A stretch of DNA of 64,000 bases from Botryllus schlosseri. Lineage: Eukaryota. Numbering within the stretch: the first letter of the stretch is position 1; each line of letters begins with the position of its first letter. The stretch spans positions 1,242,001 through 1,306,000 of the forward strand of contig CM119371.1 of the NCBI GenBank assembly GCA_051294905.1, given 5' to 3'. Below the pieces are notes generated by a model. The model made no database searches. It had not been told where the DNA came from and was given only the letters and a program-made list of their open reading frames with translations. A program made the translations under genes and the position numbers. Below are positions 17,621 through 51,117 of the stretch, piece by piece.

Positions 17621-17922
17621 ATGTATTCTTTTTTCCAGACACCCCGTAATGATCGCCAACAGCTCATTGTTGATGTTGCAGCTGCGCAAACCCAAGTACA
17701 TCAGACTTTCACTCCTTGCTGCAAGCGATCCAACGATATGAGCTTCATCGCGACTTAATGAAATATCAGATGCATCGATATTGGAAATTTGTCTCATAAG
17801 ATCGCCGTCTCCTGATTCATAGATTGCTGTATAGAGTTCCATGCGAACGCGCTCGTTGTCCTCCTTGAGATGCGAACGGATCGATCGGGCGAGAAATCGC
17901 TTTTTCAGCGACCGATTTGAGA
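17621..17922 (-). CDS. NLR exon after the NACHT: end of the helical domain and first LRR (LMYLGLRSCNINNELLAII), phase 1-0
   Basis: Acceptor attatttgtctgacag and donor CAT|GTGAGT. Its phase 1 matches the NACHT exon donor. Contains a ribonuclease-inhibitor-like LRR motif. Confidence 0.85.
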
Positions 17923-18574
17923 CTGTCAGACAAATAATGCACCTCACTATACGATATTACAATCGAGTAAAGAGGAACAACAGTTTTCACAGAGACACAG
18001 CCAAGCGGTAGAGTTGAAGCCATATTCGCCCACAAATGTTTGACTCATACGCATGTTTTCACAACGACACAATGAATCCTTGACGTATGTCATTGTATTA
18101 GAACCTAAATTCGCATCCTTAAAATTTCCAATTACCCGCCACATATTATTCCGCTGCTTACGCGACTTGATGTACGCAGACTGACTGAATATGAAACAGT
18201 TCTGACTGGATTGATCTTTTACTGCATTGTCTTGGGACAATAGTGCAACAAAGCATGGATTCAATAAGCTCATTGGATCCGTGCCCACCACACAGTCATG
18301 CGTTTAAGATTGATTTTTCTCACAAGATTCAAAACAGTGGTACGAAGTAGTACGAAGGTGCGCACGCTATCAGAAATGAAATTTTTGTGAGGTCTTGATA
18401 AAACTACAGCATCGTCACTAAATCCAATATGGTTGGTATGACCAAAAATATTAAATAATGGTCATGTTATGGACGCAGTACTATTTTTTGTGGCTTTGCG
18501 TATCATACAGCCAGTGGTGGTGTCATGGGTAATGCTAGCATGCTCAACTGGTCTTATAACAAATCTAATGATAG

Positions 18575-19134
18575 TAGAGGTCGGCCGATATTGATTTTTG
18601 CAGTCCGATACCGATTATCGACACACTCACAAGGCCGATAACCGATATCATAGGCCTATATTAATATGGAAGGAGCAGAGAACCATTTCGCTAAAAATAA
18701 TATATATCTATCATGATGGCACTTGTACATGCCACAGAAAGCTGACCAACAAACGAGAAAAATGAAATTAGAATGAAATATTGCTCGATTGTGCACATTC
18801 ATTGAAATTTGGGTTAACCCGACAAGCAAAACATGATACAGAATTGCTGATCAGTCGAGCAGAGGTAGCTTGTAATGTAGGGAAGCATACTTTCCCTGCA
18901 TGCTCACCCAGTTAAACTCGTCCTGCAAGGTTTAATCTGTCACGCATCGCTCTTGGCGTTGCCGATTTCATGAGATTGAAAACACGGAGCACTGGATTTT
19001 CAATATTTTTGAATTTGTTTTATAAATAAAATATTGGCCTCGATACCAGCATTTCATGGACTGATATCGATAATCGGGAAGGTTTCAAATATCGGCTTCG
19101 ATAATCGGTCAGGTTTATAATCCGTCGACCTCTA
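18575..19134. mobile_element. hAT-type MITE (CCGATA/TATCGG motifs); contains the left duplication breakpoint
   Basis: TIR TAGAGGTCG...CGACCTCTA. Flanks AATGATAG/ACTAATAG form a degenerate TSD. Only its right part (39916-40087) is present in copy B. Confidence 0.75.
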
Positions 19135-19652
19135 ACTAATAGATTCGAAACTCCAGTCGTTACGCTGGAATCCACAATGCTGAGCATGTCAATAATAGCA
19201 TAATTAATACTAGTGGGGACCACAGTGTTAAATTCAATAAAACTGAATTTAATCGAAAACAGATTTTGAAAATATCAATTAAAGTTTGATCAGAGTAATG
19301 AAACCACCCCTAAATAGCACTGAAAGGTCATGAAATCGGCGTTGTTCGAGCAATCGAACCGCCACAGGACAATGACGACAACAATGGTCAAACGCGTTGC
19401 GCGACCGTTCTGAACAATGAGGGATCGCGATTAGTAATCGAAAATTGGACTCAAAGCCTGACACTCAGTTCAGAATTGAATCACTCCGATACTTGATATA
19501 TGATCAGACCACACTCGCACCTAGAAACGTATATTTAAATGTGTGTTTTCTCACAGATTCATATTTTCAGTCTCGAGAGTAGCGGGAATACGATAACTTT
19601 TCGAGAAAAGTAGCCAACATCACGGAAAACTATACTCTCCGATGAGACTCAC

Positions 19653-21095
19653 CTTCATGAAGGCTATCCGGCTTTTCATCGCAAATGATGCCGCACACGA
19701 ATCTTCGGACGACCGACCATCGCTCTTTGTGCAGGTGTTTAGAGTTGAAGCTCATGAACTTTGTAAGCGTCATTTCGACTACAAAGCCCGCAGCGAGGAA
19801 TTCTTGCAGACTTTGATGACAGAAGAAGAAAATGAAATCACCCTCCAAAAGATTGCAACTGAGGAGTTTGTTTCCAGGAACCTTCATCATGAGATCTTGA
19901 ACTTCTTCTGTTGAAAGTCCAAACATCCTCAAATCATTTTCACGGAATGCCACTCTCCCTTCTTTCATGCCACGATATGCCATCGCTTTCAATTTATTAA
20001 CAACTCCGGCGATAACCTTAGCATTTCTAATGTTTTTCACGCTGCTTAAAGTGGATATAATTTTTTTGTAGAGTCCTGTGACGGTCTTTGGAGGAGGGTC
20101 GTTCGGATTCCTGGCCATGATCACTGCGGTTAAGACCAGAAACACGGGAATGGAAACTAAATTGATCAGCCTTGGTGACATCTTTTCCATCTTCTCCCAT
20201 GCTTCATCCCCATGCTGACGTATCAGATACAGAAAAAGGTTCTTTGCGTCATCTAGGGTCAGACCAGAAAGTGTGATGATGTCGGCAGGCCGAGCTTCCG
20301 CGGGCAAATCCGAGACTTGAAATTCCCGAGAAGAGATGACAATCTTCGTATCAGCGAGTATATTATGTGAGAGGATATTGAACATGATCGTTGCTGCTTC
20401 GGCTAGAGTATAAGGATTTATGCTTTCGTCGCCATCTCTGTTGATTTTCCACATAGCCTGATCCAAGCCATCGAAAAATAAGACTGAGTCAGACTGATGT
20501 TCGAGCAACCACTGATATGCATTATCCTCATCGATCTCATTCTGAAAGAGGCCACCGAAGAGAAATTTAGATGGTTTGATCAATCCTTTATCTCGCATGC
20601 CTTTTATTTCTATATAATGTATCAATTTATACTTTAGCTGAGAGGGACTTGCAGTGGCTTCTGTATTCGTGAGTGAATGCCCTAAACATTGTCTAGCGAT
20701 TCTACGCATGAGAGTGGTTTTCCCAGATCCTGCAGACGCAACTATAGCGGTGATAGAACTGTCCCCGTTGATAAGTTGTTGCAAAACGTCATCTAGCTCG
20801 ATGAATTTGTTGTCGTCAACTACTTGTCGGAGAAATCCGAATTCCTTTCTGAATTGATTTTTGACAACCTCTTTCTTTTGCCAGAAGAAGAATTTTCTTT
20901 TTACTTCGACTTCCATTCCGTGCACCTCTTCATAATTGCCTTTGAAATATTCTGACTTAGTGACTCTTCTCATCTGGGGATGTACTTGAAAATCAGGTTT
21001 GCTGAGGTCGTCGGCGCCGATGTCTTCGAGGATTCTGTCCGCCGTCTTTTGAGACGTATTATCGTTTATGCATTTTATCAGGGTTGAAGCTTTTT
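19653..21095 (-). CDS. NACHT-domain exon of an NLR (NOD-like receptor), copy A; 1443 bp, phase 1-1
   Basis: Walker A ASAGSGKTT, Walker B VLFFDGLDQ, sensor-1 IVISSR, HD1 SIPVFL, winged helix FCHQSLQEFLAA, HD2 RWSVVRRFVCGI. Acceptor tttttatcttccag and donor G|GTGAGT. Confidence 0.95.
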
Positions 21096-21562
21096 CTGGA
21101 AGATAAAAATATCCTTTCTTCATTATATTTATGAATAGAAATGATCGGACAAAAGCTGTTACCACTTTTTGTTAATATTTTATATGACCTAGGACCTAGG
21201 TATTCAAGAAAGATGTGGAGATTAATACTGTGAATAATGCAGAATTAAGAGGGGCACCGGCGTTCTCAACCTTTGTTCAGCCAATATTCCGGTTTTAAAA
21301 CTTCATGTGGCTTATCCTAGAGTCATGGTCCTGTTCAGTGCGCGGTAATCGCCGCCGCGGATATGCGTATTTGTCTAAAATATGTGCATTTATCTCCGAC
21401 TAATCATATTTTAATTTATACCTCTATACAAAGATTGATCTACTTGCCGGCGTTAAAAAAAGTTTGTGCGGTTGTTTACAAGCAACTCCGTTGCAGCCGT
21501 CGACATGCAAATTGAATAGACTGGCTAATTTTTGAAAGATTTCAATCATTCATTTTCAATTC

Positions 21563-23080
21563 ATTTATCGCGTCAACGACAGGCCTGAATAATCGCATAA
21601 ACAGCACGCTATGTGCGCAAAATGTAATCGCTGGCTACAGTCGCATCTCCAACAGGCCTGGTGCGCACGACGCTATCGTTTGCCTGAGAAATCACATCTA
21701 TAATAGGCCGTATGCGCAAGATATCGTCGCTGGCCTGAACTATCGCGTCTCGGGCCTCGCAGGCTTTGGCTGTTATCTACTATCGTTTTGAGACAATGCC
21801 GTTCAATGTATAATGATTAGCTATGGTTATGTCATGATTGTTCAACAGTGACATAGCAAATCAGAATGAAATCGAATACGAAAACATATATAACTATTCA
21901 TATACTGCGAATGTGGGATGCGTACTATACATGGGTACAGGCTTTTTACCAGAAGTCACACGCCATTTTAAGGGTGCGTATTATACATGGTGGCCCACTA
22001 TATTTGAAAAATGTGGTAGTAGCGCCATTTCCCATCTGAGCCCCACAGTACAGATCTGAACAAAAGAGGAAAATGATGCAGCACCCCACATAGAGAAACC
22101 AAATTGGAATCATCTGTTTATAACGAATGAAATTTGTTTCTGGTACGTTTCGGCGATTCAAATATATTTCCACTCCAGCGACAATCGTAATGGAATGTAG
22201 AAAAATAACTGCATGCAACAAAGTGACTGATAAAAATTGGCCCATGCCAAGATCCATCATCATTTATATCTTGCCCTAAATTTTTGAAAACACCTCCTCC
22301 ATCAACTCTACCGGTTAATATGAGCACACGGGCTGAGAAAAAATGAATGTGAATAGGAATATGACAAATTTCTAATAATAATGAGAAAATTCATAACTAA
22401 ATCTTAAAATTTCTGTGTGACAATGACTATCCCAGCCTTACATGACCACTGACCCGTCACCACTCACGATTTCGGTGTTTATAGTAAGCAGATATGTGTG
22501 AATGTTTTTGTCCTGAGGTCGCCGGAAATAGATACCAAACCGTTTTAACATTCCAGTAGGCTGTAGGTAGGCCTATATCGCGTCCAGTTCTTAACGACTA
22601 TGCCTTTGTATGAGGCCATAGTGCATGGGTAGGTACGTTAAGCATAGGCGTGTGCCTATCAGCTGGAAGTGTTGTGCCATTTAGCGAGATTCGTTTTCGC
22701 TGCACAACGGCAAGCGATCTCTCGCTGAGTGGGTTTGCAATTTTCACGCGAACAAAATCAGGTCATTGATTGCTGTACATGCGCGATCCTCGCTGGCCTG
22801 ATTTATCGCGTGAACAACAGGCCGGAACAATTGCATCTACAGCAGTCCAGGTGTACAAGATATCATCGCTGGCCTAAACAGTCACATCTGCAACAGCCTG
22901 GTCACGCACAAGACATCGTTGTTAGTCTGAAAACTATCACATCTCGGGCCTCGCAGGCTTTAGCTGCTTTGTACAATCGTTTGGAGATAATGCCGTTTAA
23001 GTCCAGAGCCAATGATTAGCGATGGTTTCGCCATGATGGTGCAGCAGTGACCTCACAAAATAAAATGACATCATATCGCC
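21563..23080 (+). repeat. Two diverged ~300-bp direct repeats (about 21563-21880 and 22801-23080) with internal ~50-bp subrepeats
   Basis: Shared tttatcgcgt..aac.acaggcc, tctcgggcctcgcaggcttt and gaga.aatgccgtt..aatgattagc. Both are also present in copy B. Confidence 0.75.
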
Positions 23081-23502
23081 GCGAGCATACTTTAATGTGC
23101 GTAATCTATTTCCGGTAATACTAAAACACAACCATCGCTGGTTCGTCAAAACAGGAAGCTTTTATAACAAGCATATACTCATTTGCTATGCATACACTGT
23201 ACAGTAGTGGTTATCAACCTTCTTGACCTCACGGACTGGTAAAACTTCAAAAAATGTTGAGGACGGTCATCCTTCAAAAATCGAAATTAACTCTAAATTC
23301 AATCAGGGTACTGGTACGACAAATGTATACAGCTCTACCAACTTACATGTGCTATTGAAAACTACATTTAATGCTGTTGTTTTGATATTGGATATTTATA
23401 CATGAATATTTTGGAGTTTCTGCAAGGTTAAGCTAGCGAAGTCCTGTTAAAAACCACGTGGTTGTGCTTGTTGGCTTTTCTCCAAAAGATATTGCTATAT
23501 AC

Positions 23503-24909
23503 CAGTGCTTTTCAACCTTTTTGAGCTCCATTCGCACTTTTTTTGTAAAATAAATTTCATTCGCACAAACTAATCGAAAATTGTTATACAAAAAGAAGAC
23601 GAAGATACTTAACAACATTTTGTTCAGATGTGCAACAAATTAGCTGCCATGTAAATTAAGCTATCAAGTGTCCCATTAAAAAGGTAATTTTTTTCGCTCG
23701 TTTTGATTTCAATTATTTCACTAAAACCCTTCTCGGCCAAACAAGTTTTTGGGTTTTGTACAAAAACGTCTACTAGTGCTTGGATGGCCAGGCCTTAAAA
23801 TCTGTTCTGCACTCCTATCCAAAATACAGCGTATTTTTCGCGAGTGAAAAATGCCTGCCAGCAGAAATCGTTTTGGAGAGCTGACACAAAGGTCCCTTAG
23901 GCTCCAGTTTGTCGAAAAGGAAAAGAGCTCAAATGTTTGTTTTGAGGTTTCTGCCTTATGTATTGGAACATAAGGTGCAAAAACGATCAAGGAGAGTATG
24001 TACATTGGAGCAACGGATCATAAGGTATAGCGAGCTCCAACTTCTGTCTGACGAGTATATGAGACGAGTAAATATACTCACGATACATACCGCCCTCATT
24101 TTATCAGCGGTTTGCTGGCCATAACTATACGTCTTCATGTGCCCCTACGCAGAAGGAGTTGGCTCGAAATGAACGACTCTCATAGGCCTGAACTCGCTCG
24201 TTGCACATCCCTACACCAGTTCATCCCAACGGTCTTCGATTATGTTTTCCAGAAAAAAACAGTCGGACAAATCTTATCATGATTTCTCACGATAAAGCCA
24301 TATTTTATGCGTGTCTCGCATATTGGCTACAGTACCCAACACAGTGCCTTGGATATGTAAAAACTATCGCAGGATTTTTTGCACTAAATTCAACAAATAT
24401 TACATACATATTAACAGATAGCTCTGGCACCGTGTCGACCCAAAATTATATACCCGTTGCGGTTCATACTTTATTACCTCGAAGGGGTAAAAATTTGCGT
24501 TACAGTTACTTGCAAATGTGAGTCTGTAATGATGGTATGTACTATACTATTCTCTTGTCTCGCGCTAGTCGAACAGTTATTACGAAAATATGATGATTGT
24601 TTAGCGAAAGAAAGCAGAAAGTCAATTTAACGTCATTCACTACGGCTTGTGAGAGCTACGATTAGCGGTGCGTCGTAAGTTAAACAAGTTTTTAGAGTTG
24701 CGTCGCCACTACAAAAGTTACACTGACCTCAAATTTCCTGTTAGGTTTATTTGAATTATTCCAAGTCAGAAAAATTAACAATTATTCACGATTTTCATTC
24801 GCACTTTATCCGGATTTTCATTCGCACTGTTCGCACCACCTTCGTCATTCGCACTGCAATTTTTTTCATTCGCACAAGTGCGAACCGTCACACAGGTTGA
24901 AAAGCACTG
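23503..24909. mobile_element. Non-autonomous hAT element with ATTCGCAC subterminal repeats
   Basis: TIR CAGTGCTTTTCAACC / GGTTGAAAAGCACTG. TSD CTATATAC/CTATACAC. Duplicate at 44456-45862. Confidence 0.85.
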
Positions 24910-25239
24910 CTATACACTATTCCAGTGTTTCTTAACCTTGTCGCCAGCACCCCCAACGGGCGTTTTGGATTTTGAAGGGGGAGGAAACGCTGAGGGGGAC
25001 AAGATGGGGGTTGTTGGGCTCAGGAAAGCGGTAGGGGGGCCCTGTAGAAAAAAATTGCCGCTGCAGAGAGTGCAGTAGGGACATAGTAGAGCAACATTTC
25101 CATATATCCCCAAGTTCTCATTGTAAATTAGCATTCGACAAAATCTGTAACATCTCGAAATTTTTCCTCCCACTGCGCGCGACATACATGCTGGCCTTGT
25201 TTGCAACATGTTTCCATGTATGCAGTGATTTATAATCAT

Positions 25240-26102
25240 TAGGGCAAGTTTTGTTGCACTAAAATCGCCGAAAGCAGCTTAATTTTATCAAAGGTTACAG
25301 TAAAAAGGTGCATTTATAATTTTTGTTCAAGTATTAGGTTATGAGATAGTCAAAAGGGACCGTTGTATAACTTAGTTTCTCCAGAGCTGACAAATTTGTT
25401 ACTTCGCCATCTAACTGTCTGACGAAACCGCCGAAAATTACATTTTTAAGGCAAACAGCAAGAAAATCAAGCAATGCGGGAATAATTTCCCCAAAAAAGC
25501 CAACAGCATAGCGATTACCCCCTCCCCCTATAACAAGTCAAATAACACAACCCAAAACCTTTCGGTCTGCAAGCTTGACCCAAGCCATTACCAAAAAAAC
25601 TCACTCCTGGCGACTTCATCAAAATCAATAGGCTCTAGCCTGAAAAAGGTGACCCGGGGTAAATGTAATTTTCAGCGGTCTCGCCTTGGCGTTCGTGAAA
25701 TGGGAAATTATTGTAAAATTTGACGAGAGAATTAATACAGTAATCTATTTCTATATCGTTCGGTCACGGTCGTGCTAGGCAGGGGTAGTTGAACATGCTA
25801 GCATGCCATTGTGGCATAGATACCAGTGAGACGCAGCTAACCAGTCAGATAGCTCTTTGTTATACAAATCAATGGGAATAGAGCCATACTAGAAGTTGTT
25901 TATAGCATGTTTTTAAATCACTCCTTTACATTTGTACGCAATAGTTGATCAAAGTTACGGTAAAAATTAGCATGAAAAATAGAAAAAAGTTGCAGAAAGT
26001 TGCACTATCAAATCCTTTCAAACAGCTTAAAACATTATAGTACATAGATTCCGAGATTTCAAGTTTTAGAAATGGACCTTCACAATTTGAGAACTTGACA
26101 TA
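25240..26102 (+). mobile_element. ~850-bp non-autonomous DNA element (TAGGGCAAGTT termini), paralogous to 33750-34586
   Basis: Colinear similarity to 33750-34586 over its whole length. The latter ends AACTTGCCCTA. Confidence 0.75.
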
Positions 26103-26294
26103 AGTCACTTTGATTCCACGGCAACGATATATTTCCGATATTGACCGTGCCTACGGTCTCCTCTGCTAAGCAATCAACGAATTAAGTACCCACCATTGCA
26201 AAGCGATATCAATTTTCTATAAGCTGTTTCTTAGCCGTACCGTACTAATTAGACATGACTTTCATTGCAAGATGATGATAATCCTACCTATTAC

Positions 26295-26817
26295 TAGTGC
26301 TGGGCACAATGATTCGAGTACTCGAATCTGAATCGAGTATTAATTTTTATGATTCGAGTCGAGTAGTAAAAGACGATTTTTTCGAGTACTGAAATTATAC
26401 GCTCCTCGCCACTGAAAGTTGATTGATCAACGAGGAGTTTATCAACGATCAACGAGTTTATGCTAATTTCACTGTTGAAGCCTTGAAACCTTGATTGGCC
26501 GTATGAAACATGAAGTACAAAGCTACGAATGTTACTGGAAATTGCACATTTCCGAAGTCATGATCATCCCACAATATTGTCACAATGCAAGTGCAATGAA
26601 ATCGGTATGGTCGAAAAAAATATCAAAGTATCCTTAATATGATGGATAACAGGCATTATATTCTTTGTGGTCGCTTAAAAGGTACATATTCGAACTTTGA
26701 CAAATAATATTCTGTTATGACGTCATAATGAGTGATACTCGATTACTCGACTCGACTCGAAGCATTTTACGTGATTCAGAATCGAATCACTCAGGTACTC
26801 GATTTTGCCCAGCCCTA
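26295..26817. mobile_element. hAT-type MITE (ACTCGA family)
   Basis: Ends TAGTGCTGGGCA...TGCCCAGCCCTA. TSD CCTATTAC/CCTATTAA. Duplicate at 47248-47770. Confidence 0.85.
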
Positions 26818-30164: not shown

Positions 30165-33100
30165 ATGCCATACACCAGGAGAATGAGTACCGGTAATTTC
30201 ACAAGAACAGGCATCACGACAGCCCTAAAGAATACACTGAAGAGTTTGAAAATCTATAAAAATCCAAATCCAGCTAAGCGGGCACCAACAATATCTCTCC
30301 ACCATATACTCCACAGGATGGGATGCAGTGATTCAGCACCATCCGCAAATGTTCTGAATCGAAAATCCATCAGAGACCAAGACAAAAGATTTTGGAAATT
30401 TGGAACCATAAATGTCAGAACCATGAGAGAGGACGAGAAAGCATACGAGGTCGTCAAAGCAATATGCGACGCAGGCCTAGACATAGTCGGTTTACAAGAA
30501 GTGAAACGACTTGATAGAGGAGAAAAAATCATTGAGGCGAATGGATGTAAATACAAATTTTTCTGGCAAGGACACAAATCCATTCGTAAACATGGCGTAG
30601 GCATATTAATTCGACAGTGCAGCTTCATAAAGATTCGTGACGTGATTAACCTATCACCCAGATTGATTGTGGCAAAACTGACCGTGCACAACCTTGACTT
30701 AAAATTTATCATCAGCTATGCCCCGACGGAAGACAAAGCGTCATCAACCAAGGCCGAATTTTACAATAGTCTTTCCAAAATCTGCCAAGCAGATGACGGT
30801 GAAAAGAACCAAAAGATTATTGTAATGGGAGATATGAATGCTACGACGAACCTATGCGAAACGCACAGCTCTTTCAATGGTAAGAAAGGCATAATGAACT
30901 GCACATACAATGATAACGGTGATCGCCTGATCAACTTCTGCAGAGAGAAGGGCCTATGCGTCTCTAGCACGTTCTATATACATCACGAACGGCAGAAAAC
31001 AACATGGACTAGCCCCGATGGCAAAACGCGAAAGAAATTGGACTACATTCTTTGTGAATCTTGGCTGAGGCAATATATGGCCGACTGCTGTACAAAAAGA
31101 TCTATTCAAATAAATTCAGATCATACAATTCTAGTGGCAAAAATGAAAACACCATTTACTAGACAAGAACGTTTCAGACCACGGAAATTTAATAAAGCAA
31201 GAGAGATCGGGGCCCCGGACCTCGGCTACCTGAACAATACCGACTACAAAAACAGGCTAATCGAAGATGTAGAACAATCTCTTTCAACTGACTGCCAGGT
31301 AAAGGATGTGGACAGACTATACGAAAACCTAGCACTACCGATGCAAATGTCCACGGAGAACATACTCCCGAAATATAAGAAGGAAAAATTTGGAAACTTA
31401 TGGGAAAGTGATCAATCACTGAACGATTTGCTACAGAAACTGAAAGACGAGGGACGGAACAATCCGGACTCTCAAAGTGCCATAACACTCCTCAGAAAGA
31501 AGATTAGAAAAAGAAAAAACTTTTTGATGAACAGGCACTGGAAAACTGAAGCAGAAAAAATAAATCTAAATGCGATAAACAGGGAAACCGCAACTCTGTT
31601 CAAAAACGCAAAGACACACGGTTGTACTCTGGGTAAAGGCAATACCACAATTTCCTGCCAGGCGAGTAAACTGGCTGAATTCTTCAAAAACCATTTTGAC
31701 GCACAAGGAAATGAGAAATCGGTTGGGATGCCAAATGATCTGGAAAACATTCCAGATGCTGTAAAGTTGATGCAAGAAAATAGCTCCACCATCGATGAAG
31801 ACCCACCAACACTCGAGGAAATTACACGAGCTATTGAAAAGCTGAAGCGTAAGAAATCCAGTTCAGACGTACCACCGGAGATTTTGAGAGCAATGGCGTC
31901 ATCCAAATTGATCATGGACAAAATTACAGAATTGTTCCAAAAAATATGGGAGATTGAAAAATTACCCCAATCATTCGGCCACAGCAAGCTAACTGCCATA
32001 TGGAAGAACAAAGGAAGCAGAACCGATCCATCGACATATCGCGCTATTCAAGTTGGAAGCGTATTCTGCAAACTGTTAATACAAATAATCATATCAAGAA
32101 TAGAAGAATGGTACAACAAGCAAATTCTCGAATTCCAATGTGGTTTTAGAAAAGGGAAGGGAACCACCGACTGCATATATGTCACGAAGCAGTCTCAAAT
32201 CATTGCTGAAAAAACTGATAAACAAACATATGCCTTGTTTGTCGATCTCTCCTCTGCGTTCGACCACGTTAACAGAACCTGGCTAATTCAGTCGCTACGA
32301 AATCGAATCGATGAGGAAAAGGGAACAAAAATCATCAACTTACTTGCCTCTCTATATCGATGTACAACAACCGAACTGAAAAGCCACCCTAACCTAACTT
32401 TTCCCACAAAATCTGGAGTTCGACAGGGCGGACCCGAATCCCCTATCCTCTTCAATCTTTATATGGACTATGCCGTGAGAGTCTTCCTACACAGATCGAA
32501 ACTAGCCGATATCGCTTTCAGCCAGTATCATTTTCGCACACCGGACTATGCACGAGAAGATAAAAGGGACAAGAACTACCAAGGAACCGCTATCAACATG
32601 GGCTCAGGCTATGCGGACGATCTTGAATTCTTTTTTAAAGACCAAACTTCACTTCAGGAAGGTCTAAAACTGCTATCAGAAGTTCTTACTGAGTTTGGAT
32701 TACAAATTAATGAGTCGAAAACAAAAACTATGATATTTAACCACAATGAGGAACTGACTTACCCGACTTCAATCTGCTCTCTACACAATCATGATATTGA
32801 AAACGTGAAAACTTTCAAATACCTTGGTTGCATGATTCACTATAACGAAACGAATGTGGGGATATCCGAAATCAATAATAGGGTCAGCTCGGCACATGCT
32901 GCTTTCCAAACCTATAAATACCTGCTTCGAAACTTCAGAATTTGGATTGGTACAAGAATAAAATTTTTGAATGCCTTTGTGCGAAGTCGACTCACATATG
33001 GCTGCAGTGTATGGTCTCTTTCGGAAAATCAAAGAAGCGTCCTGGATGTCTGCTACAGACAATTTTTGCGAAAAATGGTACACGGAGGCTACACTCGAAG

Positions 33101-33374
33101 GGGAACCGATCACGCATTCAAAATTAGCAATCAGAATCTTCATAGAATCTGTCGCACTGAAGACCTTTCAGTATTCATTGATCACCAACAAGCTAAATTT
33201 CTTGCACACATAATTCGAAAACCTAATGACAGTGTCGTGAAGTCAATAACGTTTGAAGATGAAAGGAGAACGAAAAAAGGAAGACCCTCCGCAACGCTGA
33301 TGAGCAATGTCCTCAACCGGAACGACACCGACATCAGGACATTCTCAAAAGCAGCACTTTCAAGGGAAATTTAA
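30165..33374 (+). CDS. Intact APE endonuclease-reverse transcriptase ORF (1069 aa) of a non-LTR retrotransposon, RTE-like, copy A
   Basis: APE motifs GTINVRT, GLQE, YAPT, MGDMNA, LDYIL, SDH. RT motifs QCGFRKG, FVDLSSAFDHV, GVRQGGPESPILFNLYMD, YADD, FKYLG. Single ORF with no ORF1 evident. Confidence 0.95.
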   Translation: MPYTRRMSTGNFTRTGITTALKNTLKSLKIYKNPNPAKRAPTISLHHILHRMGCSDSAPSANVLNRKSIRDQDKRFWKFGTINVRTMREDEKAYEVVKAICDAGLDIVGLQEVKRLDRGEKIIEANGCKYKFFWQGHKSIRKHGVGILIRQCSFIKIRDVINLSPRLIVAKLTVHNLDLKFIISYAPTEDKASSTKAEFYNSLSKICQADDGEKNQKIIVMGDMNATTNLCETHSSFNGKKGIMNCTYNDNGDRLINFCREKGLCVSSTFYIHHERQKTTWTSPDGKTRKKLDYILCESWLRQYMADCCTKRSIQINSDHTILVAKMKTPFTRQERFRPRKFNKAREIGAPDLGYLNNTDYKNRLIEDVEQSLSTDCQVKDVDRLYENLALPMQMSTENILPKYKKEKFGNLWESDQSLNDLLQKLKDEGRNNPDSQSAITLLRKKIRKRKNFLMNRHWKTEAEKINLNAINRETATLFKNAKTHGCTLGKGNTTISCQASKLAEFFKNHFDAQGNEKSVGMPNDLENIPDAVKLMQENSSTIDEDPPTLEEITRAIEKLKRKKSSSDVPPEILRAMASSKLIMDKITELFQKIWEIEKLPQSFGHSKLTAIWKNKGSRTDPSTYRAIQVGSVFCKLLIQIIISRIEEWYNKQILEFQCGFRKGKGTTDCIYVTKQSQIIAEKTDKQTYALFVDLSSAFDHVNRTWLIQSLRNRIDEEKGTKIINLLASLYRCTTTELKSHPNLTFPTKSGVRQGGPESPILFNLYMDYAVRVFLHRSKLADIAFSQYHFRTPDYAREDKRDKNYQGTAINMGSGYADDLEFFFKDQTSLQEGLKLLSEVLTEFGLQINESKTKTMIFNHNEELTYPTSICSLHNHDIENVKTFKYLGCMIHYNETNVGISEINNRVSSAHAAFQTYKYLLRNFRIWIGTRIKFLNAFVRSRLTYGCSVWSLSENQRSVLDVCYRQFLRKMVHGGYTRRGTDHAFKISNQNLHRICRTEDLSVFIDHQQAKFLAHIIRKPNDSVVKSITFEDERRTKKGRPSATLMSNVLNRNDTDIRTFSKAALSREI

Positions 33375-33483
33375 TTTATAACCTAAATCTTTGATGCTCT
33401 CTCATTTTTGATGGATACTTCCATCACCTCGGTGATGGTGCTCTAAGTCTGAACGCAGACAGAGCTAGACCTATATATATATA
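33375..33483 (+). mobile_element. LINE 3' UTR with a stem-loop and (TA)n tail
   Basis: CCATCACC-TC-GGTGATGG hairpin at 33421-33438. TATATATATATA tail at about 33472-33483. Confidence 0.7.
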
Positions 33484-33749
33484 ATCATTTGAATCTTTTA
33501 CTGCTTGCTGTCCAAGTTACCCCTAGTTCAAAGTTACCCCGGTTTTTATTAAACCCCGGTTTACGGTTAATAAATTTTATAAACGAAACAGCCTATAACC
33601 TAGAACAGTTTTTAAAAGTAGGTGATTTTGAGAGACGTGAGTGAAAAAAAGTGTTAGAGATCCAGCGCTATACAAGCAAACCCATTGAGTATACAGATAC
33701 AAAAATTTTGAATGCCACAGAAAAGTAGAGGGATAACGCTAACGATTAC

Positions 33750-34586
33750 TAGGGCAAGTTTTCGTTGCTGTAAAATCGCGAGAAAGTTGCACTTACTTTT
33801 GACAGAAGTTGCAGTAAAAAATTGCATTCATAATTTTTGTTGAACTAGTAGGATATGTGATACTTGAAAGGTTCTGTTGTATAACCTAGTTCCTGCAGAG
33901 CTATCAAATTTGTTACTCTGCCATTTCACGAACATTCTGGTAAGACAGTCAAAAATTATATTTTTTCCCGGTACACATCTAGAAAATTACGCAATGCATG
34001 AATAATTTTCCCCAAAAAGTCAAACAGCATAGCGATAAACCCCTGCCCCTAAAACAAGTCAAATAACAACCCCCTAGGTCTGCAAACTTGAGCCAAGGTG
34101 TTGCGGAAAAATCAGTCTTGGCAACTGTAACAAATTCAAAGGACTGAATAAACTGACCCAATGAAAATGTAATTATCGGCGATCTCACATTAGCGTCCGT
34201 GAAATGGAAAACCATCTCGAATTTAAACGACAGAATTACTTAAGCGATCTATTTACATATTGTTCCAACACTGTCGTGCTTGGCAGAGGCTGTTGAACTT
34301 CTTTTACTTGCAAGCCATTGTGTCACAGATAACACAGTGACATGCAGCTAACGCATCATATAGCTCTTTGGGATGCAAAAAGAGAATAGAAGCATACTAG
34401 AAATAATTTGAAGCATGTTTTCAAATCACTCCTTTACATTTTGACGCAATATTTGATAAAAATTGCAGTAAAAAGAAAAATAGTGAAAAGTTGCACTATA
34501 AAATCCCCCCAAACAGCTTAAAACATCGCTGTACATAGATTCTGAGATCTAGGAAGCTGTAAAAAGACTTGCAAAAACTTGCCCTA
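33750..34586 (+). mobile_element. Non-autonomous DNA element with TAGGGCAAGTTTT TIRs
   Basis: TAGGGCAAGTTTT ... AAAACTTGCCCTA. Paralogous to 25240-26102. Duplicate at 54703-55539. Confidence 0.8.
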
Positions 34587-36629
34587 CTCGTATACCTTTG
34601 GTCTAGTCTTTAGAGTGGCCAAAAAGATATGTTTAACTCTTTGGTTGGGAAATCAATGGAAAAAGTTTGGGAACCCCTGACCTACAGAAGATATGATGGT
34701 CATAGCAAAAATACATTATTATTGCTGATCAATATGTTGCCAGCACTAATCCTAGTAAAGAAATGGTGATTATGGATACGAAGTAATATTCATAGCCCGT
34801 TGAAGATTTTTGTCATATTGATTGTTACTGGGTGATTCTCTATCAAATCAACCATTTAGTGGTCTCCCAATCATGAAGTTCACTTACTCTAATATTGAAT
34901 GCTTGAGATGGTGCTGGTCATAAAACAGCTTAGTCAGATCACCTCGTCTAAAGATACAATAGATGAACCTCTTGAACCAGACGATAAAATGAGCTCAAGG
35001 GTAGAACCTGCTTAGACAATTCTCAAAAACAAGTCAACAACGTAAAATTAGAATATTGTTGGTGTAATTCTGTCTACAGAAATATTGCATACCGGTGCGC
35101 TAGTTTCAAGAAAAACAATTCGTCTACTTTTGCCTACGATACATTACTGTCGCAACTTTAAAATTCCAATACATATTTATTAATATCTCATTTGCATAGC
35201 ATTCAGTGCTACCATATAGCTTTCATATGACACGGTTAATCAAAATTTGAAAGTTGACAAAAATGAGAAGGATACTCCTGTGATTTCCATGAGCAATGAC
35301 ATCAAACTTGAGTTACATGCTGGTTCCGGAACACGAATAACACTAATAACTTGAAAGATATGTCTATGATATATGTTCATTCACGGGTCTCCATCGAGTT
35401 CCGCGCCTCAATTAGGTTTTTTTTTGATGTGGCGTTCAAGTCTTGCATACCACTACTCGAAGTGCTATACTGTGACACTAGTTCCAAAAGGTTGAGAACT
35501 ATACTGATATGAAAGTCTGGTTGTTTAAAATATTCGAACCAGTCATTGTCCTCAATTAGGCTACTCGTCTGCGAATACACAGAAATTTCAGCTATGGGCA
35601 TATTCTCGACTTAGGGTCACATCAGTATGACGAGCCAGATATCGGCGTGACTCCATGTAACCTACAGAAACTGCGATGTTACATCCCAATCTAATGCTGG
35701 CTTGGCGTTTGAGCTTAATTTCTCTGTCGCTCTCTCCTGACCCACCTCCCTATTCCGCAAAAACATATCTGTTGTTACCTGGCTGTTATTGAAAAAAGCT
35801 ACTGAGCCCGGCGGCGGACTAGTCTCTTTAAGTTCAACAGCATTTCTATCGAATATTTTTCCAAGGAAACTGGGGAAACGAGGGTTTTTACTGTTGTTGT
35901 TGCCGTCACGGTAGCTCGAGTTATTGCATTATGACGTAACCCTCTTCACAGAGAGTTTAACCTTAGGTCACGGGAAAGTGATGCGGCGACATTGCGTATA
36001 AATAATAAATATAGTGATTGCGGGATGGAGTGACGACTGAATTCAAATCCCCGATTGATATTCATCCGCGACCGATTTTGGTGTTGAGATGACAATGATT
36101 AGCATCAGGATTTGGGAAAACAGCATTTGAGAAATTTTGGTGGATTAGGATTCTGATTGGATTTACCGATTTTCGGAAGATTGATGTCCTGTGGCCAGTG
36201 GCGGCTCGTCCTATAGGGCAACTGGGGCATTGCCCCACCTAAAATTCTGTTCAATAACAATTTAACCATTTATAGACGCACAGCAATCAGTATATACCGA
36301 GATCACGGCGAAACCCGCATTATTCTTGTGCTTTCGCTAACAAATGCCCATACATAGCGAAGTCTCTGCGAAAATCGAATTCTCTTCTGTGTTTTCGCTT
36401 TGTGAATGCCTAGCCGGGGCTTGCCCCGGTAGCGCTCATAACAAGCTTTCACTATCTATTCTCTCAAAGCCGCGCACAATAAAGAAACGGTGATTTACTC
36501 TCTCCTATTCGTAAAATGGCCGAGCAAGTGGGGCAACTATGCCTGTCGCCCTTAAGGTGTGATGTAACAATCGTATCTATATCTGAACTCGGTTACCGTG
36601 ATATGCGTTGACTCGACCTTTGCTGGTAT

Positions 36630-37660
36630 AGGTCGATTTTGACGGTGTTTCGCACCATGATAATTCTTGAAACTTGGTACGATATGTCGTGAAGGTAGTA
36701 TTTAGCACTGCTCCAAGTTTCAGGCTTGCTACTCAAAGATAAGGGAGGTAATTTCGTTTCCGAAGTTCAGTGTGTGCTGATCTATCATGTACATTGTACA
36801 GCAAACAGATTTTACTCAAAAGCCGGTATTGGTCTTCATTGATTTTGACGATGTTCCATACCGAGATCGGTCATGATATTTGGCACAGTAAGTCTTAATG
36901 TTAGTATCGACCGCTGTAATAAGTTTTAGGTTTTTCACTGAACTATGTGGGTGGTAATTTCGTTTCCAAAGTCGAGTGAGAGCTGACTCTTCATTTATCG
37001 CTAACAGATTTACGCAAAAGCCGTTAATGGTCTCTATTGATTTTAACGATGATCCATACCTAGATCTGTCATGAGCTTTTGCACGGTATGTCTTGATTTT
37101 AGTATCGAACGCGGTGCCAAGTCTTAAAGTTGACGCTCAATGATTGAGGCAGTTATTTCGTTTTCGAGGTCGAGTATGGTAGAGATGCGCGCTGATCTGA
37201 TACTTAGCCTACCTACATCATTGCGGATCTCACGGAAAAGCCGGTGTCTGTCTGTGCTAATCTAGTCTGCGTTCCATAACGAGATCGGTGATGATAGTTC
37301 CAATGGTATATCTCGATGATCGCATGAAACAGCTAACTAAGATTCTCGGTTTGCATTCAAATATTCACATAATTTTATGTTCGCCAATGTGCATTTCACT
37401 GTGAAATTTTGGCCTTCAAACCATTTGCTTACAATCCCCTGTCAAATGCGATAGCTATTTCATTTTCGATGTCGGCTAACAGCTGATCATTCGATCAGCC
37501 TATTCCTCGATCTATTTTACTCAAAGTTCGGTGTTCGTCTGTTTGTATTGATTTTGACAGTGTACCATGCCGGAATGGGTTATGAGATTGCGAATGCTAC
37601 TTCTCGATGATTTCATGTAACAGTATGCTAAGTTTACGGCTTTCATTCATGTATTTATTG
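36630..37660 (+). repeat. Degenerate ~200-bp tandem repeat (about 5 units) inside the hAT element
   Basis: Units begin gattttgacg/gattttaacg at about 36635, 36841, 37039 and 37550, with a diverged unit near 37260. Shared ccatacc.agatc.gtcatga, aatttcgtttcc and aaaagccg. Confidence 0.75.
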
Positions 37661-38198
37661 ATTAATATATTTTCCAACGGCGATTTGGCAGCAGACAGTA
37701 AGCCGTATGTGTTGCGTCACAATCTCCAGTTTCAAGGCCAAAATGTACTATGTTGTTCCGAGACCGAAGTTCCGAGGCTGCTGTCCTTAGTTCTTCAAAG
37801 ACCATTCAAATTGATGTTCTGGATTCAATATGACAGGCCCAATCTATGAGATAACAATTGCGTATGTGTCCGAAGTCGTTGACCTTTGCAGTTAGGCTTA
37901 CGCAATCTCTCGAGTTCTAGTCATTGGAATTAGTCTGGTCAAGTCAAGTGCGAACATGAATCGTATTGAATCTTTGCTCCGTACGTACGCTAGTTTACGC
38001 AGTTGCCTTTAGAGCGAAAATTAAAGGTCTAGAAGACTACTCCTTGTCACTTCGACATATTCCTGTCTTTTCATTGTATCGCATTTTTGTGGTGTATTGA
38101 ACTGATAAAATTGCTAATAAACCAATGATGATGATGATAGAAATTGTCCAGTCCATTGATCCAATCGTACGCCGGGTACCTCCGCTTTGGTTGCCTAT

Positions 38199-38704
38199 CA
38201 GTGATGAGCGGATAGTGCTTTTTGAGACTCCGAATCCCTCCGACAACTTTAGTGTCTGAGGAAAACTCCCTCCGACTCCGAAGAGCTCAATCCCAGACTC
38301 CTAGATACTCCGATGAATCTCGTCAAGTATCCGAAACAGTGGCAAGCATGGTACACTTTGTAATGTGTTTTACTAAATTAATGTGATAATAGGGTTGGCC
38401 TCATAGTATTGTCTACTCTCCAGTCCCCAATTGCAGTGCATATGGCTGATTTTTTTGCACTTGGCAATCATCTTTGCATGTTACCCGTCATATTACAACT
38501 TTACAAGGTGTCAACTCTCTGCGTTTTGGTTTGTAATCATAATCAAGAGTGTATTCTGGCCAGAGCTATCCAAAGATATCGGAGACAAAAGTTACAATAC
38601 TCCAAAATTCTCCGAAAAAATATCTGTAGTAAACTCCGACTCCGCTCCGACTGTCACAAAATCGGCAAAACTCCGCTCCGAATCCACTCCGATGCTCATC
38701 ACTG
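38199..38704. mobile_element. Nested hAT MITE with ACTCCG repeats
   Basis: TIR CAGTGATGAGC / GCTCATCACTG. Perfect TSD TTGCCTAT at 38191-38198 and 38705-38712. Duplicate at 59152-59657. Confidence 0.9.
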
Positions 38705-39906
38705 TTGCCTATCACCTGGTCGTAACTCGTAACCACCAGCTCAGTGGTCGTAACACACCAGGATCGTGTACGAAACACTTTCGGACGGCCTATCGATTTG
38801 CGTAATCTCTAACTCTACCATGAAATCATAACGCATGCTACTAAGGATGACCTGATAATTGATTCGTGGCATAGGGACGATTCTTAGTTCACGTACATTA
38901 TGTAAAATAATCCTTTGATTAAAAAAAATGAATAAAACATTTGTTACCACACTTCAAGTCACGGCTCACCGGCAAACCTCTGGCGGCACCTACGTTAAAA
39001 TCACTGTTGTCGGGAAATTCATGAGACCATCATATTAAAGTTACTTTTTTACGTTGGAAAACGCCATTGTGACGTCATGTTGATAAAAGTCGCTCGCAGC
39101 CCTTGCCCCACCACCCGATATTGTCACGAGCCGCCACTGCCTGTGGCGAATGGTGACAAAGTTTTTCGACCTATCTAAGTTAGCCTACTTCGTGTATTTT
39201 GAGCATTTTGTTTATTTTTCACAGAACTATAGGCATGGGATATAGGCTTTTTAAGTGGAATGCTAAGTTTGAATCGGATTAGGATTAGGACTAGGATTGT
39301 AGAATACATAATTTTTGGATCAGAAAGGATCAGATAAGGACATAGAAGTTTTGAATCCGCTCATTTCTTGTTTATTGGCGTCATGTTGCAGTAATTATAT
39401 CGTGAACATTGTTGTTATGGTATTATTGTCAGTTATACTTTCAATGTTTGAGATCATACGTGTATCAATGCATATGAATGTCGAAATATCCATTTAAATC
39501 AAGGACGAAACATGGATGCGGCGAGGTGGCATAATCGACAGCTACAAAACGTGTTGTCGGTCCGAATCCGACCGAGGTCGACTCCAGAATTCCCCTACCT
39601 AGGTGTTGGAGGTTTTTCTAGTATGGAGACCCGAGGTTTTCAGATTGTTCTGTATTTGCCATTTAGAAATTGCGTTGCGCATGGTATGGCTGGAGACCGG
39701 GTGTTGACTCAGTTCAGTGAGTAACTGAGTATGTCTCTATGTTTGGTAGCGTGAAGAATAAGTAGTTGGGAGCAGTAGCGTGAAGTAGAGGTGGTATTAG
39801 GCAATTAGGGCGAGAAGTAGTAGGTAGTTGGTCTTGTATTTGCAGACTTGAGTTAGACGTACCTGTCGGAATCTCTGCGCGGACAGTTGGCTGTGACACG
39901 GCCTAG

Positions 39907-39915
39907 ACACGGCCA
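39907..39915. other. 9-bp junction insertion ACACGGCCA between the two duplication copies
   Basis: Absent from both parental flanks (...GTTGC|CGATTTC and ...GCCTAG|TCACTG). Its first 8 nt repeat ACACGGCC at 39896-39903. Confidence 0.9.
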
Positions 39916-40605
39916 CGATTTCATGAGATTGAAAACACGGAGCACTGGATTTTCAATATTTTTGAATTTGTTTTATAAATAAAATATTGGCCTCGATACC
40001 AGCATTTCATGGACTGATATCGATAATCGGGAAGGTTTCAAATATCGGCTTCGATAATCGGTCAGGTTTATAATCCGTCGACCTCTAACTAATAGATTCG
40101 AAACTCCAGTCGTTACGCTGGAATCCACAATGCTGAGCATGTCAATAATAGCATAATTAATACTAGTGGGGACCACAGTGTTAAATTCAATAAAACTGAA
40201 TTTAATCGAAAACAGATTTTGAAAATATCAATTAAAGTTTGATCAGAGTAATGAAACCACCCCTAAATAGCACTGAAAGGTCATGAAATCGGCGTTGTTC
40301 GAGCAATCGAACCGCCACAGGACAATGACGACAACAATGGTCAAACGCGTTGCGCGACCGTTCTGAACAATGAGGGATCGCGATTAGTAATCGAAAATTG
40401 GACTCAAAGCCTGACACTCAGTTCAGAATTGAATCACTCCGATACTTGATATATGATCAGACCACACTCGCACCTAGAAACGTATATTTAAATGTGTGTT
40501 TTCTCACAGATTCATATTTTCAGTCTCGAGAGTAGCGGGAATACGATAACTTTTCGAGAAAAGTAGCCAACATCACGGAAAACTATACTCTCCGATGAGA
40601 CTCAC

Positions 40606-42048
40606 CTTCATGAAGGCTATCCGGCTTTTCATCGCAAATGATGCCGCACACGAATCTTCGGACGACCGACCATCGCTCTTTGTGCAGGTGTTTAGAGTTG
40701 AAGCTCATGAACTTTGTAAGCGTCATTTCGACTACAAAGCCCGCAGCGAGGAATTCTTGCAGACTTTGATGACAGAAGAAGAAAATGAAATCACCCTCCA
40801 AAAGATTGCAACTGAGGAGTTTGTTTCCAGGAACCTTCATCATGAGATCTTGAACTTCTTCTGTTGAAAGTCCAAACATCCTCAAATCATTTTCACGGAA
40901 TGCCACTCTCCCTTCTTTCATGCCACGATATGCCATCGCTTTCAATTTATTAACAACTCCGGCGATAACCTTAGCATTTCTAATGTTTTTCACGCTGCTT
41001 AAAGTGGATATAATTTTTTTGTAGAGTCCTGTGACGGTCTTTGGAGGAGGGTCGTTCGGATTCCTGGCCATGATCACTGCGGTTAAGACCAGAAACACGG
41101 GAATGGAAACTAAATTGATCAGCCTTGGTGACATCTTTTCCATCTTCTCCCATGCTTCATCCCCATGCTGACGTATCAGATACAGAAAAAGGTTCTTTGC
41201 GTCATCTAGGGTCAGACCAGAAAGTGTGATGATGTCGGCAGGCCGAGCTTCCGCGGGCAAATCCGAGACTTGAAATTCCCGAGAAGAGATGACAATCTTC
41301 GTATCAGCGAGTATATTATGTGAGAGGATATTGAACATGATCGTTGCTGCTTCGGCTAGAGTATAAGGATTTATGCTTTCGTCGCCATCTCTGTTGATTT
41401 TCCACATAGCCTGATCCAAGCCATCGAAAAATAAGACTGAGTCAGACTGATGTTCGAGCAACCACTGATATGCATTATCCTCATCGATCTCATTCTGAAA
41501 GAGGCCACCGAAGAGAAATTTAGATGGTTTGATCAATCCTTTATCTCGCATGCCTTTTATTTCTATATAATGTATCAATTTATACTTTAGCTGAGAGGGA
41601 CTTGCAGTGGCTTCTGTATTCGTGAGTGAATGCCCTAAACATTGTCTAGCGATTCTACGCATGAGAGTGGTTTTCCCAGATCCTGCAGACGCAACTATAG
41701 CGGTGATAGAACTGTCCCCGTTGATAAGTTGTTGCAAAACGTCATCTAGCTCGATGAATTTGTTGTCGTCAACTACTTGTCGGAGAAATCCGAATTCCTT
41801 TCTGAATTGATTTTTGACAACCTCTTTCTTTTGCCAGAAGAAGAATTTTCTTTTTACTTCGACTTCCATTCCGTGCACCTCTTCATAATTGCCTTTGAAA
41901 TATTCTGACTTAGTGACTCTTCTCATCTGGGGATGTACTTGAAAATCAGGTTTGCTGAGGTCGTCGGCGCCGATGTCTTCGAGGATTCTGTCCGCCGTCT
42001 TTTGAGACGTATTATCGTTTATGCATTTTATCAGGGTTGAAGCTTTTT
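40606..42048 (-). CDS. Duplicated NACHT exon (copy B), with no LRR exons of its own downstream
   Basis: The 511-aa ORF 40583-42118 is identical to 19630-21165 and has the same splice sites. Confidence 0.9.
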
Positions 42049-51000: not shown

Positions 51001-51117
51001 TATAAGATATAGAGTACCGGTAGCCTAATATTAGTATATCCTGATATGATAGCTGCAACTGCATTGTGAGGAAATGGATGCTCCGTCAATCATCTGATTG
51101 TTGATCCGCCAAAGACA

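Follow-up and report, generated by a model that had tools for sequence, protein, structure and literature searches.

A minus-strand NACHT-LRR gene of Botryllus schlosseri is assembled with two identical, in-frame copies of its NACHT exon, which lie within a perfect 20,944-bp tandem repeat in the window (the whole 64-kb stretch of DNA analysed here). We give about an even chance to the explanation that an intragenic tandem duplication, very recent and probably private, occurred in this tunicate-type gene and that both NACHT exons enter the mRNA by default.

A perfect tandem repeat with a templated junction

Self-BLAST and direct string comparison showed that 18963-39906 equals 39916-60859 at 20,944 of 20,944 bases, head to tail, with 0 differences between the copies. 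The repeat and its contents are as follows.

18963..39906, no strand: copy A of the 20,944-bp tandem repeat, identical to 39916-60859; holds NACHT exon copy A, intron sequence and one LINE
39907..39915, no strand: junction filler ACACGGCCA, whose first 8 bases repeat 39896-39903, 11 nt upstream
39916..60859, no strand: copy B of the tandem repeat, identical to copy A
30117..33374, plus strand: LINE frame with 1085 codons open (endonuclease and reverse transcriptase), antisense in the intron, in copy A
51070..54327, plus strand: second occurrence of this LINE frame, in copy B

The copies are joined by the 9 inserted bases of the filler, and the 64-kb window contains 0 N, hence the junction is gapless. 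Eight of the 9 filler bases are templated from the sequence 11 nt upstream, and ACACGGCC occurs in the window at 39896, 39907 and 60849 only. String comparison found 0 shared bases past either end of the repeat, and the breakpoint regions have no repeat in common with each other or with the remaining window, so that recombination between repeats is unlikely. Rfam and tRNA scans gave no matches.

In the assembly, the NACHT exon is doubled and the next exon is not

19653..21095, minus strand: NACHT exon copy A, 1443 bp, phase 1-1, followed by a 1,730-nt intron and exon 2
40606..42048, minus strand: NACHT exon copy B, identical to copy A; a 19,510-nt intron separates its donor from the copy A acceptor
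17621..17922, minus strand: exon 2, 302 bp, phase 1 in and phase 0 out, single copy
12271..12375, minus strand: candidate exon 3 (tentative), 105 bp, ttccag before and gtgaga after, phase 0-0, LRR-like

The left breakpoint, 18963, falls inside the 1,730-nt intron between NACHT exon copy A and exon 2. The sequence-only reading had proposed that the NACHT exon is doubled and the LRR-side exon is not, and this was borne out in the assembly, where exon 2 (17922-17621) is single. Its description of the NACHT exon as a symmetric phase 1-1 exon of 1443 bp, followed by an exon that accepts phase 1, also agrees with the exon borders: both copies have the acceptor ...cttccag/AAAAAGCT and the donor ...CATGAAG/gtgagt, with phase 1 at both ends, while exon 2 takes phase 1 at its acceptor ctgacag/TCTCAAAT at 17922 and ends at 17621, before gtgagt.

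Translation confirmed all frames of the three products that had been considered formally possible, namely a tandem NACHT, the skipping of one copy and a read-through. Joining NACHT to exon 2 gives 582 aa with 0 stops, and NACHT to NACHT to exon 2 gives 1063 aa with 0 stops and the junction ...PDSLHE/EKASTLIK, while read-through of the donor gives ...HEGESHRRV*, a stop after 8 extra residues. The earlier idea of an LRR-less product of copy B stands as far as the open read-through frame goes, but this frame is not peculiar to copy B, because the first 690 nt of intron are identical behind both NACHT donors.

Exon 2 probably encodes the last part of the helical domain together with a first LRR-like unit. 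It was matched by tblastn in 8 of 20 full-length relatives and by phmmer in the C-terminus of a Styela protein (E 7.6e-11). No exon beyond exon 2 was identified by phmmer with the Styela C-terminus against all ORFs or by tblastn with the 20 relatives; alignments of several relatives extend colinearly from exon 2 into candidate exon 3 (12271-12375). Residues 74-121 of exon 2 joined to candidate exon 3 gave weak matches to four LRR units of the fish NLRP3-like protein P0020 (E 0.011-0.18 each), and Pfam found 0 LRR matches in the 127 minus-strand ORFs of 1-17956. Separately, a simple LRR regular expression left of 18000 gave 10 minus-strand and 5 plus-strand matches, a difference too weak to use. 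Two further candidates were rejected: 16430-16669, to which no in-phase acceptor fits, and 14427-14597 on the plus strand, a match to residues 1-59 of P0030 that contains a stop and resembles transposon-derived sequence.

The gene belongs to a divergent tunicate-type NLR group

The NACHT exon matched Pfam PF05729 (NACHT) with 47.9 bits (cut-off 26.7, E 1.8e-12) and had weak matches to NOD2_WH and NLRC4_HD2. Its translation contains the Walker A motif GSGKTT, with G122, G124 and K125 invariant in 15 sequences, and the Walker B region FFDGLDQA, with D208 and G209 invariant in alignment A1. A PDB profile search with the product found 5irm (E 1.7e-18). The AF2 model (pLDDT 77.6, pTM 0.78) was nearest to the same rabbit NOD2 structure in Foldseek (E 1.5e-17, TMq 0.69), where rabbit NOD2, NLRP3, NLRC4 and NLRP9 were the top matches among 229 at E <= 0.001. 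The exon thus encodes a full NOD module, for which the model predicts an NBD-HD1-WHD-HD2 fold.

As in vertebrate NLRs of the NOD2/NLRP3 type (5irm, 5irl and 5irn for rabbit NOD2; 7alv for the NLRP3 NACHT), there is a P-loop NACHT with GSGKTT and DGLDQ, and the vertebrate module of NBD, helical and winged-helix parts matches the predicted module of this gene. In contrast to this likeness, identity to the vertebrate proteins is only 15-18%, the putative LRRs of this gene would be too divergent for Pfam in the window ORFs, and its 5′ exons lie beyond the window. Over the NACHT exon, the Styela clava 'protein NLRC5-like' (P0018) aligns colinearly at 34% identity (E 2e-77), and the colinearity continues over exon 2 (E 1.5e-8). 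Full-length relatives (the P0027-P0043 group) carry NACHT, HD2 and LRR_6, one of them with a Death domain, and the best relatives are only about 50% identical. A single NACHT stretch is present in each of the ten close full-length relatives that were scanned, whereas the gene assembled here has two NACHT exons. Whether or not the duplication is real, the gene itself is ordinary for a divergent NLR group of the tunicate type.

The exon spliced to the NACHT acceptor in run X5 is absent from the window

In two contigs of run X5, the match to the window stops exactly at 42048, the NACHT acceptor, and continues into 30 or more nucleotides of non-window sequence. This extension has no terminal AG on the transcript strand and its frame stays open; it is therefore a spliced upstream exon. 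It had 0 matches in the window when up to 3 mismatches were allowed; exact words of 11 to 14 bases from it were likewise absent from the window, where only two 10-mer matches occurred. The N-terminal part of the 20 full-length relatives had no minus-strand match in the window. We also scanned with Pfam 122 ORFs, each 48 aa or longer, from the two strands of 21100-30100, 33380-39960 and 60700-64000, that is, the repeat outside the NACHT exon and the LINE, together with the right flank. None of the 122 exceeded a curated cut-off, and the only match at E <= 0.01 was CATSPERG_C (E 0.0021, 18.4 bits, cut-off 27.6). Because the upstream exon is outside the window and no N-terminal domain was found in the repeat, both NACHT exons would belong to a single transcription unit, and copy B is most likely an additional internal exon of the same gene rather than a separate LRR-less gene. 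In principle, the X5 contigs might derive from a near-identical paralogue elsewhere, and an alternative first exon may lie within the repeat.

Under the preferred explanation of an intragenic duplication, the duplicated segment would extend 690 nt past the NACHT donor on one side and about 18.8 kb upstream of the NACHT acceptor on the other, and the head-to-tail copy would have been sealed by a short templated insertion, through polymerase theta end joining or a replicative template switch. Templated insertions that match break-adjacent sequence are given as a signature of TMEJ, and were present at 13.2% of 204 tandem-duplication junctions, in the available part of PMC13031928. The 1443-bp NACHT exon would be the only coding exon of the gene in the segment and would carry the whole nucleotide-binding module. 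With the LRR-side exons left of the breakpoint and the 5′ exons outside the window, the result would therefore be a single gene in which 19.5 kb separates two identical NACHT exons, both in frame.

Real duplication or false exon gain

It is quite possible, though we would not call it probable, that the repeat is an assembly artefact, a 'false exon gain' in which about 21 kb of one true copy was placed twice by the assembler, gap closer or scaffolder, and the copies were made identical by polishing. The use of the same reads twice would give 0 differences across 20,944 bp, and the repeat size of about 21 kb is in the long-read range. False exon gains are a regular class of error, and the available part of Ko et al. 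2022 (PMC9516828) describes cases like the present one, in which an exon is doubled within a gene and the copies are 'homotype', without heterozygous k-mers or differences. However, gaps between the duplicates are one mark of false copies in the same source, and here the copies are joined with 0 N and with a templated insertion. The 9 junction bases are in neither flank and 8 of them are templated nearby, which an overlap join would not yield; templated junction insertion is a known signature of repair in vivo, according to the accessible text of PMC13031928.

Reads and contigs were aligned to 39700-59699 only, a region wholly inside the repeat that has no single-copy depth baseline, and the summed depths of the aligned contigs (about 200-360 nt each) are no measure of copy number. 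Among the alignments listed for this region, which left out 1887 loose ends and 231 joints, no read or contig spanned the junction at 39907-39915, and this would also fit an artefact. A 33-nt junction word and a 30-nt word of the NACHT exon each had 0 matches in a metagenome collection that does not include this organism, and these zeros therefore carry no weight. The other samples differed from the window at 40 listed positions and 286 more in 20 kb, while copies A and B differed at 0; with samples varying from the window at hundreds of places per 20 kb, this argues that the copies are not two haplotypes. The window alleles at 40076, 40176 and 40351 were absent from both X1 and X6, and the source individual is therefore probably not among the aligned samples. 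The claim that the variant was caught immediately after it arose rests on the duplication being real.

Predicted products of the doubled gene

If the duplication is real, the identical splice sites and flanks suggest that the default mRNA would encode, in order, N-terminus, NACHT, NACHT and LRR, with 481 additional residues, and the skipping of either copy would give the normal mRNA. Dystrophin exon duplications, as described in the available parts of PMC3982197 and PMC7350004, likewise double an internal exon head to tail in one transcription unit, with both copies expected in the mRNA; therapy consists of skipping one copy, from which it follows that both duplicated exons are normally spliced in. 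The difference from dystrophin is that the product predicted here stays in frame and would double the whole ATPase module of an immune receptor.

We consider it unlikely, though a realistic prospect, that a real duplication yields a linear in-frame mRNA with both exons and a receptor with two full nucleotide-binding modules before one LRR region. In such a receptor, the first module is predicted to be without its own LRR and without the end of its helical domain. The accessible portion of the literature on tandem or double NACHT gave no description of a protein with two NACHT modules. Predicted fish proteins include P0049, in which six FISNA-NACHT-WH modules and five HD2 stretches follow from the model, and P0125, P0155, P0156 and P0169, with two NACHT modules each; these automatic models are only distantly related, at about 25% identity, and belong to the FISNA type. 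P0125, P0155 and P0156 are likely to be fused neighbouring genes, because what repeats in them is an entire NLR-B30.2 gene.

A real duplication may also be without effect on the product, if splicing leaves out one NACHT exon every time or expression of the allele is low, and the normal NLR is then the sole product. The frame is kept and the same 582-aa stretch results whichever copy is skipped. In X23, the only raw RNA run aligned, depth on the NACHT exon was 0 to 0.96; the tandem joint was not among the joints listed, but a depth under 1 is too low for this to weigh either way. Against this, the splice sites and flanks of the copies are identical, which leaves no known reason to ignore one exon, and duplicated DMD exons are spliced in, as noted above from the available parts of PMC3982197 and PMC7350004. 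We regard this outcome as improbable.

In published work, loss of the LRR region activates NLRC4 and NOD2, and this would fit a copy B that is a separate LRR-less gene with its own start, in which read-through or early polyadenylation yields a protein of NACHT alone that works as an NLR of auto-active, helper or decoy kind. The read-through stop after 8 residues would serve such a gene, as would the 20 AATAAA/ATTAAA hexamers in the 19,510-nt intron behind copy B, compared with 2 in the 1,730-nt intron. We nevertheless consider it very improbable: the exon that the X5 contigs join to the NACHT acceptor lies outside the window, no first-exon-like sequence or N-terminal domain was found in the repeat (Pfam on ORFs, 20 relatives), the read-through is equally open to both copies over the identical 690 nt, and the other 18.8 kb of the intron is the gene's own upstream intron, through which transcription must pass in any case.

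Significance

Should the repeat prove to be an artefact, it is a warning that perfect tandem repeats of about 20 kb in long-read assemblies can make false exon gains, which matters in fast-evolving immune gene families, whose copy number is often taken as biology. If the duplication is real, the variant is most likely neutral to harmful rather than an evolved new receptor. It would nevertheless be a clean natural case of the origin of domain repeats in immune receptors, in which a single repair event doubles a symmetric-phase exon, and with it a whole ATPase module, before mutations accumulate. The activity of doubled and single-module alleles could then be compared within the same species, as a direct test of the effect of a second NOD module on autoinhibition and oligomerisation. 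The doubled NACHT-NACHT-LRR form, if true, would be a newborn NLR architecture without a described counterpart.

An identical tandem repeat within an NLR gene

Self-comparison of the window with BLAST revealed one large direct repeat, and direct string comparison showed that 18963-39906 (copy A) and 39916-60859 (copy B) are identical at 20,944 of 20,944 positions, with 0 bases shared beyond either end; the lone mismatch in the BLAST alignment lay within a ragged 4-base extension. The copies are separated by a nine-base filler, ACACGGCCA (39907-39915), bases 1-8 of which copy a sequence 11 nt upstream, and the whole window contains 0 N. The sequence ACACGGCC was present elsewhere in the window only at the equivalent copy B site, and no repeat common to both breakpoint regions, or to either of them and the rest of the window, was found. 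The left breakpoint, 18963, falls inside the 1,730-nt intron separating the NACHT exon from exon 2, where the sequence-only reading had placed it; its claim that the NACHT exon is doubled and the next exon single was also borne out, as exon 2 lies to the left of the repeat. The duplication present in the assembly is of an ordinary structural variant kind, an intragenic tandem duplication.

The NACHT exon and the downstream exons

The exons of the NLR gene and their borders are as follows.

42048, minus strand: NACHT exon acceptor, ...cttccag/AAAAAGCT
After 40606, minus strand: NACHT exon donor, CATGAAG/gtgagt
17922-17621, minus strand: exon 2, ctgacag/TCTCAAAT acceptor and gtgagt donor, 302 bp, phase 1 in and phase 0 out
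12375-12271, minus strand: tentative candidate exon 3, ttccag/.../gtgaga, phase 0-0

With these borders, the 1443-bp NACHT exon has phase 1 at each end. The sole long minus-strand frame of the repeat encodes Walker A GSGKTT and FFDGLDQA, and Pfam matched it to NACHT at 47.9 bits (cut-off 26.7) and weakly to NOD2_WH and NLRC4_HD2. When a profile of the NACHT-exon protein and 14 relatives was compared with solved structures, the best match was 5irm/5irl (E 1.7e-18), with NLRP1 and NLRP3 next. Similarly, the structure nearest to the AlphaFold model of this protein (pLDDT 77.6, pTM 0.78) was rabbit NOD2 (E 1.5e-17, TMq 0.69), followed by NLRP3, NLRC4 and NLRP9. These matches to NLRs indicate that the single exon is predicted to encode a whole nucleotide-binding module. 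Its closest proteins were unnamed ORFs with ~50% identity, the best named relative was a Styela clava 'NLRC5-like' protein (34%), a single match that points to a probable ascidian source, and an exhaustive search returned 566 relatives at E <= 0.001. The gene is a divergent yet ordinary NLR.

Exon 2 is backed by homology, as judged from its alignment to the same Styela clava protein (E 1.5e-8), a phmmer match (E 7.6e-11) and tblastn matches from 8 of 20 full-length relatives. Candidate exon 3 extends the alignment to several relatives, and the end of exon 2 together with candidate exon 3 matched four LRR units in an NLRP3-like protein from fish. The unduplicated exons had been described as bearing LRRs; relatives do align with them colinearly, but Pfam found an LRR in 0 of 127 minus-strand ORFs left of 17956, so that it is the relatives that weakly suggest the designation 'LRR exons'.

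The start of the gene

Contigs from three sets, together with one raw RNA run, were aligned to 39700-59699. In the contigs of run X5, the summed depth was 235-267 in the NACHT exon's two 5' bins and 21.6 in the bin of its 3' third, and depth was 44.1 for an exon piece and 5-15 for intron pieces. Two X5 contigs stopped matching exactly at 42048 and continued into non-matching sequence (median 75 nt). Worked out by hand on the transcript strand, this sequence has no terminal AG and its frame stays open, which rules out a paralogue's intron and points to a spliced upstream exon, though the contigs could derive from a near-identical paralogue. The 30-nt consensus of the putative exon had 0 matches in the window at <=3 mismatches, and it shared no exact 11- to 14-base word with the window, only two 10-mer matches. 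Because this exon is absent from the 64 kb window, the intron upstream of the NACHT exon would be >21.9 kb in the assembly; with a single copy it would span 18.8 kb and at least 3.1 kb of flanking sequence.

Across the remainder of the repeat and the right flank, 0 of 122 ORFs (>=48 aa) reached the Pfam curated cut-off, the sole match listed at E <= 0.01 being CATSPERG_C (18.4 bits, cut-off 27.6), and the N-termini of 20 relatives had no minus-strand match in the window. Given these absences, the promoter and 5' exons would most simply be placed beyond 64000, in which case the repeat would hold one coding exon of the NLR gene and no more. An alternative first exon may lie within the repeat.

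Other elements in the window

27978-28676 and again 48931-49629, in the intron: foldback (palindromic) element, ~700 bp, 85.6% identity to its own reverse complement
30117-33374 and again 51070-54327, plus strand: open LINE frame, 1085 codons, with endonuclease and reverse-transcriptase domains (RVT_1, E 8.2e-34)
36804-37175 and again 57757-58128: tandem 198-bp unit, 1.9 copies, 77% matches
26289-26813 (upstream intron) and 10241-10761 (left of exon 2), same orientation: ~530-bp element pair, 78% identity
14427-14597, plus strand: frame with an internal stop, 44% identity to residues 1-59 of P0030, an NLR relative
4910-5081 and 5731-5896: inverted MITE-like pair, ~170 bp, ~650 bp apart, 84-85% identity
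1-550 and 1900-2220: low-complexity sequence with open frames on both strands and recurring short peptide-like units (such as ...WYGM.../...PYHT...)

The LINE frame is antisense within the NLR intron, with its first ATG at codon 17 and a stop followed by no poly(A) tail. Its contig depth across the runs is suggestive of a multi-copy family, and there the letters of the window were found in run X6, not in X1 or X5. Contig depth was very high in all runs at 57042-59699, around the 198-bp unit, and the right-hand part of the repeat therefore consists of high-copy elements. The frame at 14427-14597 looks like a decayed transposon-derived fragment, which we take to be hAT-like; if it is transposon-derived, the gene model of P0030 would be chimeric at its N-terminus. 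The low-complexity sequence is probably a minisatellite, and Tandem Repeats Finder made no call there at score 80.

A real duplication or an assembly artefact

We lean towards a real duplication, and regard an assembly artefact as a serious though lesser possibility. Perfect identity across a stretch of long-read length would suit an artefact, and false exon gains are a documented error class in the available text of PMC9516828. Among the alignments listed, none gave read support for the junction at 39907-39915; the contigs are only ~200-360 nt, 1887 loose ends and 231 joints stand outside those listed, and the aligned stretch lies entirely within the repeat and gives no single-copy depth baseline. 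The assembly's individual is probably absent from the aligned runs, because at 40076, 40176 and 40351 neither X1 nor X6 has the window's letters. Against an artefact, the two copies cannot be two haplotypes, since they differ at 0 of 20,944 positions, while within 20 kb the window and other samples disagree at hundreds of sites (40 listed and 286 more). Moreover, the copies adjoin without a gap, whereas gaps between duplicates are among the marks of false duplications in the same text (Ko et al., PMC9516828). The junction bases occur in neither flank, and eight are templated from 11 nt away; templated insertions matching break-side sequence are characteristic of polymerase-theta end joining and were found at 13.2% of 204 tandem-duplication junctions, according to the available part of PMC13031928.

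Predicted products of the duplicated gene

Tandem, single (by skipping) and read-through products had been proposed, and all three reading frames were as claimed. Joined to exon 2, the single-NACHT product is open over 582 aa and the tandem product runs for 1063 aa without a stop (junction ...PDSLHE/EKASTLIK), while read-through of the donor ends ...HEGESHRRV*. However, read-through is not specific to copy B, because the intron up to the stop is identical behind both copies. The earlier interpretation is partly supported. The intron from the copy B donor to the copy A acceptor is 19,510 nt long: the natural downstream intron contributes its first 690 nt, which are fused to the natural upstream intron, up to copy A's natural acceptor. 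It contains 20 poly(A) hexamers, compared with 2 in the normal intron, and most of it is the gene's own upstream intron, already traversed by transcription.

The close full-length relatives (936-1506 aa) each had a single match to the NACHT exon, and 10 of 10 scanned carried one NACHT stretch per protein, with LRR_6 in some and a Death domain in one. Some automatic gene models from fish have several NACHT modules per protein, as in the predicted tandem product, but are distant from the window's gene: database protein P0049 carries six FISNA-NACHT-WH modules and five HD2 stretches with no LRR match, and P0125, P0155, P0156 and P0169 carry two NACHT modules each. Three of these models repeat an entire gene, which makes fused neighbouring genes the likely explanation. 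Under tandem-, double- or multiple-NACHT wording, no protein with two NACHT modules was apparent in the literature, mostly at the level of titles and abstract beginnings; in the available text of PMC3879445, 'multiple NACHT domains' refers to several genes within a genome rather than to a single protein.

The depth of the NACHT exon in the raw RNA run was 0 to 0.96, too low to inform on the tandem joint either way. Given a real, intragenic duplication, a single pre-mRNA would carry two identical exons, and the splicing machinery would have nothing to tell copy A from copy B. Both would then be expected in the mRNA, as for duplicated dystrophin exons, where both copies are spliced in according to the available parts of PMC3982197 and PMC7350004, and the product would read N-terminus, NACHT, NACHT, LRR; skipping of either copy would give the normal message. 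In the doubled protein, the gene's own helical-domain end and LRR would follow the second module only, and the first module may be unrestrained, inert or misfolded.
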